A stretch of DNA of 64,000 nucleotides from Escherichia coli O127:H6 str. E2348/69. Its GTDB lineage: Bacteria; Pseudomonadota; Gammaproteobacteria; Enterobacterales; Enterobacteriaceae. The DNA lies in the NCBI RefSeq assembly GCF_000026545.1, contig NC_011601.1; one strand, 5' to 3'. Below the pieces are notes generated by a model. That model did no database searches. It was not told the origin of the DNA and saw nothing but the letters and a program-made list of their open reading frames with translations. The translations under genes and the position numbers were made by a program. Of the stretch, positions 20,415-53,403 are shown piece after piece (the first letter of the stretch is position 1; each line of letters starts with the position of its first letter).

Positions 20415-20512
20415 TAGGCCGGATAAGGCGTTCACGCCGCATCCGGCAATCAGGCACAATGCCTGATGCGACGCTGCCGCGTCTTATCAGGCCTACGAAA
20501 GCATCCGGCTTT
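20415..20512. repeat. REP/BIME-type extragenic palindromic repeat cluster
   Basis: Imperfect palindromes GCCGGATAAGGCGTTCACGCCGCATCCGGC and GCCTGATGCGACGCTGCCGCGTCTTATCAGGCCTAC between convergent yghU and hybG. Confidence 0.8.
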
Positions 20513-28701: not shown

Positions 28702-29010
28702 ATGGTCTGGTTAGCGAATCCCGAACGTTACGGGCAGATGCAGTACCGCTATTGCGGAAAAAGTGGTTTACGCCTGCCCGCGTTATCGCTCGGTTTATGG
28801 CACAATTTCGGTCACGTTAACGCGCTGGAATCACAGCGTGCGATCCTGCGTAAAGCGTTTGATTTAGGCATTACGCACTTTGATTTAGCCAACAATTACG
28901 GGCCGCCTCCAGGAAGCGCAGAAGAGAACTTTGGTCGCCTGCTGCGCGAGGATTTTGCCGCTTATCGCGATGAACTGATTATCTCTACCAAAGCCGGATA
29001 CGATATGTGG
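28702..29010 (+). pseudogene. yghZ: yghZ 5' fragment (aldo-keto reductase), interrupted by IS insertion
   Basis: Encodes MVWLANPERYGQMQYRYCGKSGLRLPALSLGLWHNFG...STKAGYDMW, then runs into the IS end, which supplies a TGA stop; the remainder of the reading frame resumes at 30440. Confidence 0.9.
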
Positions 29011-29034
29011 TGAACTGCACCCCAAATGTTGGAC
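29011..29034 (+). repeat. IS left terminal inverted repeat
   Basis: TGAACTGCACCCCAAATGTTGGAC, matching the reverse complement of the right end at about 20 of 24 positions. Confidence 0.75.
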
Positions 29035-29061
29035 ATAATCTGACATCTGAAGGTACAGTTT

Positions 29062-29555
29062 ATGAAACATTCATTTGAAGTAAAACTTGCCGCTGTAAAT
29101 CATTACCTGGCTGGTCATGCAGGCATCATTTCTACGGCAAAACTCTTTCAACTTTCTCACACCAGCCTCTCACACTGGATTAATCTTTTTCTTCTTCACG
29201 GTCCTCGGGCACTGGATTGCAGACACAAGCGTAGCTATTCTCCTGAAGATAAACTTTGCGTGGTTCTTTATGCTCTCGGGCATTCTGAGTCTCTACCCCG
29301 GGTAGCTGCCCGGTTTAACATTCCCAGCCACAACACGGTTAAAAACTGGATAAAAGGCTACCGCAAATCTGGTAATGAGGCCTTTATCAGGCGCAGGAAG
29401 GAGAAAAGCATGACCCGTTCTGATGATACCCATGAAAACGAGGCAAACATGACGCCGGAAGAGATGAAGAATGAGCTGCGTTATCTTCGCGCAGAAAATG
29501 CATATCTGAAAGCCATGCAGGAGCATCTCCTGGAAAAAAAGCGCCAGGAGCTGGA

Positions 29556-29583
<28 letters not shown>
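29062..29583 (+). CDS. insJ: IS150 transposase OrfA (InsJ, HTH DNA-binding)
   Basis: 173-aa ORF MKHSFEVKLAAVNHYLAGHAGIISTAKLF... recognised as IS150 InsJ; leucine-zipper-like C-terminal region. Confidence 0.9.
29535..29541 (+). other. Programmed -1 ribosomal frameshift slippery heptamer (A_AAA_AAG)
   Basis: A AAA AAG lies in the OrfA frame just before its stop, and the downstream OrfB is in the -1 frame; the classic IS3-family arrangement yielding an OrfAB fusion transposase. Confidence 0.7.
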
Positions 29584-31174
<1,591 letters not shown>

Positions 31175-53169: not shown

Positions 53170-53403
53170 AACACCCTCTGAAGGTCTGAGAGACTGGCAT
53201 TGTACGTCACCTGAAAATCAGGTTAGGGCATTGTTAAAAGCCGCTCTCTGGAAAAGCGTATTGTTAATCGCAACGCATGAATAAACAACGGTTTCAAGGG
53301 AATTTTTATCGTTTCCGGGGGTTGAATACGCTGCCGGATGACGACTTAACGTTTCATCCGGCGTTTCTTGCAAGCGGGAGGAAACAGCGCCCTCCCCGGC
53401 ATA

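Follow-up and report, generated by a model that had tools for sequence, protein, structure and literature searches.

The transposases of the IS3 family are made, by the textbook route, through -1 frameshifting at an A_AAA_AAG heptamer. In dnaX and in IS911, which serve as mechanistic models, the same heptamer lies between an upstream Shine–Dalgarno-like sequence (about 10–11 nt before it) and a downstream hairpin. IS150 (1443 bp; positions 242–1684 of L009) is the prototype of the IS150 group, with an IS3-family organization, an in-phase A_AAA_AAG within the orfA/orfB overlap, a hairpin downstream and a 3–4-bp target duplication. IS1397 is built alike, with a candidate hairpin downstream. In E. 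coli, A_AAA_AAG ranks among the most efficient -1 motifs (PMC4066793).

In the stretch of 64,000 nt analyzed here (E. coli O127:H6 str. E2348/69, NC_011601.1; called the window below), a preliminary description had noted an intact -1 frameshift signal in an insertion sequence that it assigned to IS150. The heptamer is indeed intact, and RefSeq annotates the copy at 29011–30439 as a single transposase CDS joined via a "programmed frameshift", with gpr pseudogene fragments on either side. The name, however, has to be changed. We are confident that the locus is a copy of IS1397, inserted in gpr (yghZ) between two TGG repeats, with OrfAB made by -1 frameshifting at A_AAA_AAG. The feature is ordinary and, being annotated in RefSeq, already known; part of the corrective value lies in the element name, IS1397 instead of IS150. 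The element and its surroundings are as follows.

28702..29010, + strand: 5′ fragment of gpr (yghZ, L-glyceraldehyde 3-phosphate reductase), a RefSeq pseudogene fragment
29008..29010, no strand: left copy of the TGG target-site duplication (the gpr frame is restored on its removal)
29011..30439, + strand: IS1397 copy, IS3 family, 1429 bp (from identity to RefSeq-named copies)
29011..29035, + strand: left inverted repeat with a 5′-TG start, 25 nt, 84% complementary to 30415–30439
30415..30439, + strand: right inverted repeat with a CA-3′ end, pairing with 29011–29035
30440..30442, no strand: right copy of the TGG target-site duplication (from sequence reading)
30440..31174, + strand: 3′ fragment of gpr, a RefSeq pseudogene fragment

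The whole element was compared by megablast with 5426 complete E. coli genomes. It matches at 100% the gpr copy in NZ_LT827011 and NZ_LT903847 (both derived from E2348/69) and at 99.5–99.7% the 1432-bp copies present in many strains. The RefSeq name of the matched copies is "IS3-like element IS1397 family transposase", and it is against these RefSeq-named copies that the identity was measured. A near-full-length copy of IS1397 is found in 1707 of the genomes, and the full-length query finds six places in NZ_LT827011. The annotated copies, at 99.5–100% nucleotide identity, have the same inverted repeats, the same two-frame layout and the RefSeq-annotated frameshift; the repeats (TGAACTG...CAGTTCA) do not differ among any of the IS1397 copies compared. 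The copy in the window has the two partly overlapping ORFs of the IS3 family, with orfB in the -1 frame, and the ends of that family, imperfect TG...CA inverted repeats with a 3–4-bp target duplication (TGG here). By its sequence, the element is IS1397, which within the IS3 family stands nearest to the IS150 group. It differs from the other copies of IS1397 in being 3 bp shorter, in the SNP A29055 and in its position within a coding sequence rather than a palindromic unit (PU).

A slightly shortened IS150 would share with this element the family, a similar size, similar terminal repeats and the heptamer itself. But the proteins are only ~42% identical, the likeness at the DNA level is restricted to one 70-nt patch (at 79%), the ends differ (TGAACTG vs. 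TGTACTG in IS150), and the frameshift site is 8 codons downstream of that in IS150. There is practically no chance that the element is IS150. The length of 1429 bp given in the preliminary description is exact (29011–30439), and the shortfall noted there is real; it stems from a 3-bp internal deletion by comparison with IS1397 copies of 1432 bp in other genomes.

The frameshift cassette has three parts.

29062..29583, + strand: orfA, HTH DNA-binding protein of 173 aa (Pfam HTH_28, HTH_Tnp_1; 99% identical to P0001)
29535..29541, + strand: slippery heptamer A_AAA_AAG, -1 frameshift site, in phase (the sole in-phase motif, within an invariant block)
29541..30407, + strand: orfB-frame part of OrfAB, with G29541 re-read (HTH_21, rve; D294/D354/E390)

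The window reads AAAAAAG at 29535–29541. From the ATG of orfA at 29062 to its TGA at 29581–29583, the codons around the site are CTG GAA AAA AAG CGC, and the zero-frame codons GAA (29533), AAA (29536) and AAG (29539) put the heptamer in the A_AAA_AAG phase that tandem -1 slippage requires. The -1 frame, open from 29475 up to its stop codon (30405–30407), overlaps orfA over 109 nt, with the heptamer inside. The phase and the overlap agree with the earlier placement of A_AAA_AAG in the OrfA frame before a -1 OrfB frame, and the two ORFs are open, as had been described (orfA, 29062–29583; -1 frame, 29475–30407). The locus contains an in-phase X_XXY_YYZ within a two-frame overlap, the arrangement of a -1 frameshift cassette. 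No other in-phase X_XXY_YYZ (Y = A/T) occurs in the 109-nt overlap; two other A-runs, beginning at 29534 and 29557, do not have the required phase. Shuffling of codons or mononucleotides yields an in-phase A_AAA_AAG in ~1% of cases for an overlap this rich in lysine, so that the motif by itself is only moderately unlikely and is suggestive rather than decisive. Conservation in relatives is stronger evidence than the motif. In addition, the orfB frame has neither an ATG nor an in-frame GTG before 29685 and, therefore, a full-length transposase requires the shift.

Ribosomes translating orfA would meet A_AAA_AAG at 29535–29541, where the two lysyl-tRNAs would slip back by 1 nt. After the slip, translation would go on in the orfB frame to yield an OrfAB of 448 aa with HTH, HTH_21 and DDE (rve) domains, with a predicted junction peptide ...LLEKKAPGAGEK..., and the ribosomes that do not slip would make the OrfA of 173 aa. 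We infer both the occurrence of slippage at this copy and its efficiency.

Relatives were collected with an OrfA protein search (53–59% identity), and the DNA of five of them was taken (L014–L018). They belong to the IS1397 clade and come from metagenome or run assemblies, with one close protein named from Erwinia. In all five, an in-phase A_AAA_AAG is present at the same place, 36–39 nt before the end of orfA, within the same cassette, a 14-nt block GGAAAAAAAGCGCC that is invariant in an alignment with a mean column identity of 81%. In two of them (L015 and L017), a stop in the -1 frame directly precedes the heptamer and the -1 frame opens only 3 nt upstream, so that the shift is possible only there. 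An in-phase A_AAA_AAG occurs also in IS150, ISKpn8, a Mycetohabitans element and a Photobacterium element. In these four, "YLKK" marks the site, 8 codons before the "LLEKK" of the IS1397 clade; within the group, the frameshift site has evidently moved.

The same fused frame would result from one A added to the mRNA by RNA polymerase on the A7 run at 29534–29540, without any ribosomal frameshifting, and that run is present in the six members of the clade (6/6). Such transcriptional slippage is very improbable as the source of OrfAB. At their site, IS150 and the other relatives have only A6G, and in every element the phase of the motif is exact for tandem tRNA slippage, a phase that slippage during transcription would not need. 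In E. coli, transcriptional slippage is efficient only on runs of roughly nine residues or more. Ribosomal -1 frameshifting at A_AAA_AAG is, thus, the reading retained here.

There is a further difference between IS1397 and its clade at the end of orfA. In L014–L018, a GTG in the orfB frame overlaps the stop of orfA (ATAGTG) and is called as a separate start of orfB. IS1397 has instead a CTG at 29580 (CTGA at 29580–29583), which makes the separate synthesis of OrfB look less likely; it may be reduced or absent in IS1397. At the older "YLKK" position, IS1397 now reads CTG AAA GCC (29503–29541 of the window compared with L009–L012).

Two candidate stimulators of the shift, and a small hairpin besides, lie around the heptamer.

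29520..29523, + strand: GGAG, Shine–Dalgarno-like, candidate stimulator 11 nt upstream of the heptamer
29518..29532, + strand: small hairpin CAGGAG-CAU-CUCCUG in the MFE fold, just upstream of the heptamer
29545..29582, + strand: candidate downstream hairpin, 38 nt, interrupted, dG -12.4 kcal/mol, starting 4 nt after the motif

The spacing of GGAG fits the 6–17 nt rule for upstream Shine–Dalgarno-like sequences, and the hairpin at 29545–29582 conforms to the empirical rules, in which the structure starts 4–10 nt past the motif (PMC4066793). GGAG is present in five of the six clade members, but it codes also for a conserved Q-E. The pairs of the small hairpin at 29518–29532 break in two of the six, and no covariation is seen in it among the six members. 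The inner stem of the 29545–29582 hairpin is not kept in the relatives. In some copies of IS1397, the variant G29575A replaces one U·G pair there by U-A. The case for a conserved RNA structure downstream of the heptamer was rejected: the covariation term of the RNAalifold consensus is only -0.02, column shuffles reached the values observed for the hairpin model in 420–466 of 500 trials (no signal), and Rfam gave no match beyond a chance one for the frameshift region. In IS150, a clean stem of 10 bp begins 7 nt past the motif; the stem in IS1397 has only 9 bp and is interrupted. The layout is that of dnaX and IS911, with the difference that the stimulators of IS1397 are predicted only; GGAG 11 nt upstream and the 38-nt hairpin 4 nt downstream would be the likely ones.

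Removal of the element together with one TGG brings back the frame of gpr/yghZ (...GYDMWPGPY...). The gpr gene of E2348/69 is therefore inactivated by IS1397. IS1397 is known for its insertion into REP sequences, or the palindromic units of BIMEs. Among the other IS1397 copies examined with their flanks, four of four lie in genuine REP/PU sequences, with 3–4-bp duplications at the dyad, in accordance with PMC1525189. The gpr copy lies in a coding sequence and not at the center of a PU, and the left half of its target resembles a PU arm.

28993..29010, + strand: left target half GCCGGATACGATATGTGG, like the left REP/PU arm (11/13 pattern positions)

The uninterrupted target reads GCCGGATACGATATGTGG|CCCGGTCCATACGGC (28993–29010 joined to 30440–30457). 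It scores 17/20 against the PU pattern (the real PUs in the window score 19–20), a value of 17 being reached by only 7 of ~125,000 positions in the window. The distance from GCC to the insertion is 18 nt, a value shared by three of the four genuine PUs used for comparison (the remaining one has 16 nt), and the TGG duplication is exactly central (positions 16–18 of 33). The site is not a true palindromic unit: folding gives it no hairpin potential (z = 0.21). IS1397, regarded as specific for REP/PU sequences, sits here at the center of a 33-nt stretch of gpr that resembles a PU in its outer arms only (GCCGGAT...ATACGGC) and cannot fold into the hairpin. An insertion within a gene, at a partial mimic of a PU, offers a small lead on target recognition by a REP-targeting transposase. 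The window contains genuine REP/PU sequences at 20418–20492 (a two-PU BIME) and at 53333–53362 (a single palindrome), both free of IS1397.

The gpr::IS1397 junction is found in 25 of the 5426 genomes, three records of E2348/69 and 22 genomes of a second lineage (including ZH063 and SK1144). In the second lineage (L004 and L005), the site in gpr and the orientation are the same, and the copy belongs to the type Z subtype, with 20 SNPs, mostly synonymous, plus the GCA triplet. The flanks of this lineage are diverged by 0.5–1.4% from the window, right up to the element; the flanks in the window are 100% identical to those of the E2348/69 record NZ_CP059840.2. The central patch of the gpr copy in NZ_CP059840.2 was dropped as evidence for a single ancestral insertion in E2348/69 and ZH063, type Z being found whole at yijF–gldA in NZ_LT827011; the two lineages may share one old insertion or have acquired two independent ones. 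If the two insertions were independent, gpr would offer a natural minimal target, and the transposase would read the sequence and spacing of the arms, not the palindrome, a tentative reading to which we give a rather low probability.

The copies of IS1397 in E2348/69 show four left ends, and three loci were compared (gpr, yijF–gldA and yjbB–pepE). The difference that separates the window copy from the 1432-bp copies within the coding region is a small deletion.

29618..29619, + strand: 3-bp deletion (GCA) relative to the 1432-bp IS1397, removing Ala186 from DLLKAAGLARSTLYY

In the window, NZ_LT827011 and NZ_LT903847, the gpr and yjbB copies have the common haplotype with GCA deleted, and the yijF copy is of type Z (1432 bp). 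In NZ_CP059840.2, of the same strain E2348/69, the gpr copy is 1432 bp long; there, the gpr and yjbB copies carry a type-Z central patch with GCA present, and it is the yijF copy that has GCA deleted. The disagreement between the assemblies is confined to this central patch, 29529–29792 (264 bp; L001, L006–L008, L019 and L020), with the GCA deletion and linked SNPs, five at gpr/yjbB and four at yijF–gldA. The parts of each copy that adjoin the flanks are the same in both assemblies.

The center could, therefore, have been assigned to the wrong copy in one of the assemblies, in which case the true gpr copy would be 1432 bp long and the deletion would not be its own. The reversal of the GCA state between gpr/yjbB and yijF–gldA fits with this, as does the restriction of the differences to the part of the element furthest from unique flanks. 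On the other hand, the versions in the window and in the LT records are coherent and resemble natural haplotypes (the yijF copy of the LT records is 3 sites from the ZH063 copy, and the window copy is the common type except for one SNP and the deletion), whereas the versions in NZ_CP059840.2 are chimeras of both haplotypes. A misassigned center in the window is possible, with the balance against it; we lean toward a correct sequence in the window, or a real recombination in the other lineage. The exact sequence of the gpr copy is nevertheless uncertain, since an independent assembly of the same strain gives different central 264 bp. E2348/69 is a reference EPEC strain, and the conflict between its assemblies over the centers of IS1397 calls for caution in studies of IS variation.

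Other differences exist between these records. In NZ_LT903847, the IS1397 at yjbB–pepE is broken by the IS110-like ISEc21 (1374 bp inserted past IS position 1112, at ~3144–4517 of L008); in NZ_CP059840.2 (L020), that copy is uninterrupted. In NZ_LT827011 (E2348/69 "variety 2"), yghX is truncated by IS66 and IS3 fragments (L001, 1–2195). The gene is intact in the window (upstream of 28205) and in NZ_CP059840.2, so that stocks or assemblies of one strain differ structurally here.

The 448-aa fusion scores 379 bits on NF033516 transpos_IS3 (NCBIfam; cut-off 160), and Pfam recognizes HTH_28, HTH_21, rve and rve_2 in it (PF00665 at 76 bits). The DDE residues are D294 (29940–29942), D354 (30120–30122) and E390 (30228–30230), in the motifs WVTD, HSDQG and DNAVME. 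There are no stops in the orfA or orfB frames of the window copy. Between the subtypes of IS1397, ~20 SNPs lead to only 5 amino-acid changes, which suggests that purifying selection has acted on the transposase across the whole lineage. From the title of a 1999 report by Clement et al., IS1397 is said to be active in K-12.

Two differences set the window copy apart from the 1432-bp copies, the SNP at 29055 and the loss of GCA past 29618. The loss is in frame and creates no stop; one alanine of an Ala-Ala pair is gone. The frameshift signal could, thus, be intact in a copy unable to transpose on its own, should the loss of Ala186 from DLLKAAGLARSTLYY cripple OrfAB (DNA binding or multimerization could be impaired). 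The length of this segment is constant in 11 related elements, down to ~42% identity, and the deletion, carried or reported to be carried by the gpr copy, is seen among the 5426 genomes only in assemblies of E2348/69. Against a crippled OrfAB, the lost residue is a single alanine out of a pair, and one assembly has the deleted allele at two loci (gpr and yjbB–pepE, with 1 nt different between them), which fits a spread after the deletion. The presence at several loci was rejected as proof of transposition: the copies are mosaic, and gene conversion fits equally. The argument is weakened further because both PU sites are occupied in other strains (IS1397 is present at yijF–gldA in 11 and at yjbB–pepE in 99 other genomes). 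A copy defective for autonomous transposition is a minority possibility that we take seriously.

We consider it plausible that the copy in the window is competent for transposition: a residue is lost from a segment of constant length, but the ends, the catalytic residues and the frames are otherwise intact. The preliminary description had called the element transposition-competent. The frames, the ends and D294/D354/E390 are as this would require; with Ala186 missing, the wording goes slightly beyond the evidence. It had also named internal deletions or premature stops as findings that would refute this; an internal deletion exists (GCA), and no premature stop does.

Upstream of orfA, a promoter-like match at 29030–29059 was rejected as the orfA promoter: it ends 3 nt before the ATG and, for that reason, could not serve orfA in the usual way. 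At 29055, only the gpr and yjbB copies of E2348/69 have A, and the other subtypes have G; this SNP lies between the Shine–Dalgarno region and the ATG of orfA, inside a weak -10-like hexamer, TACAGT.
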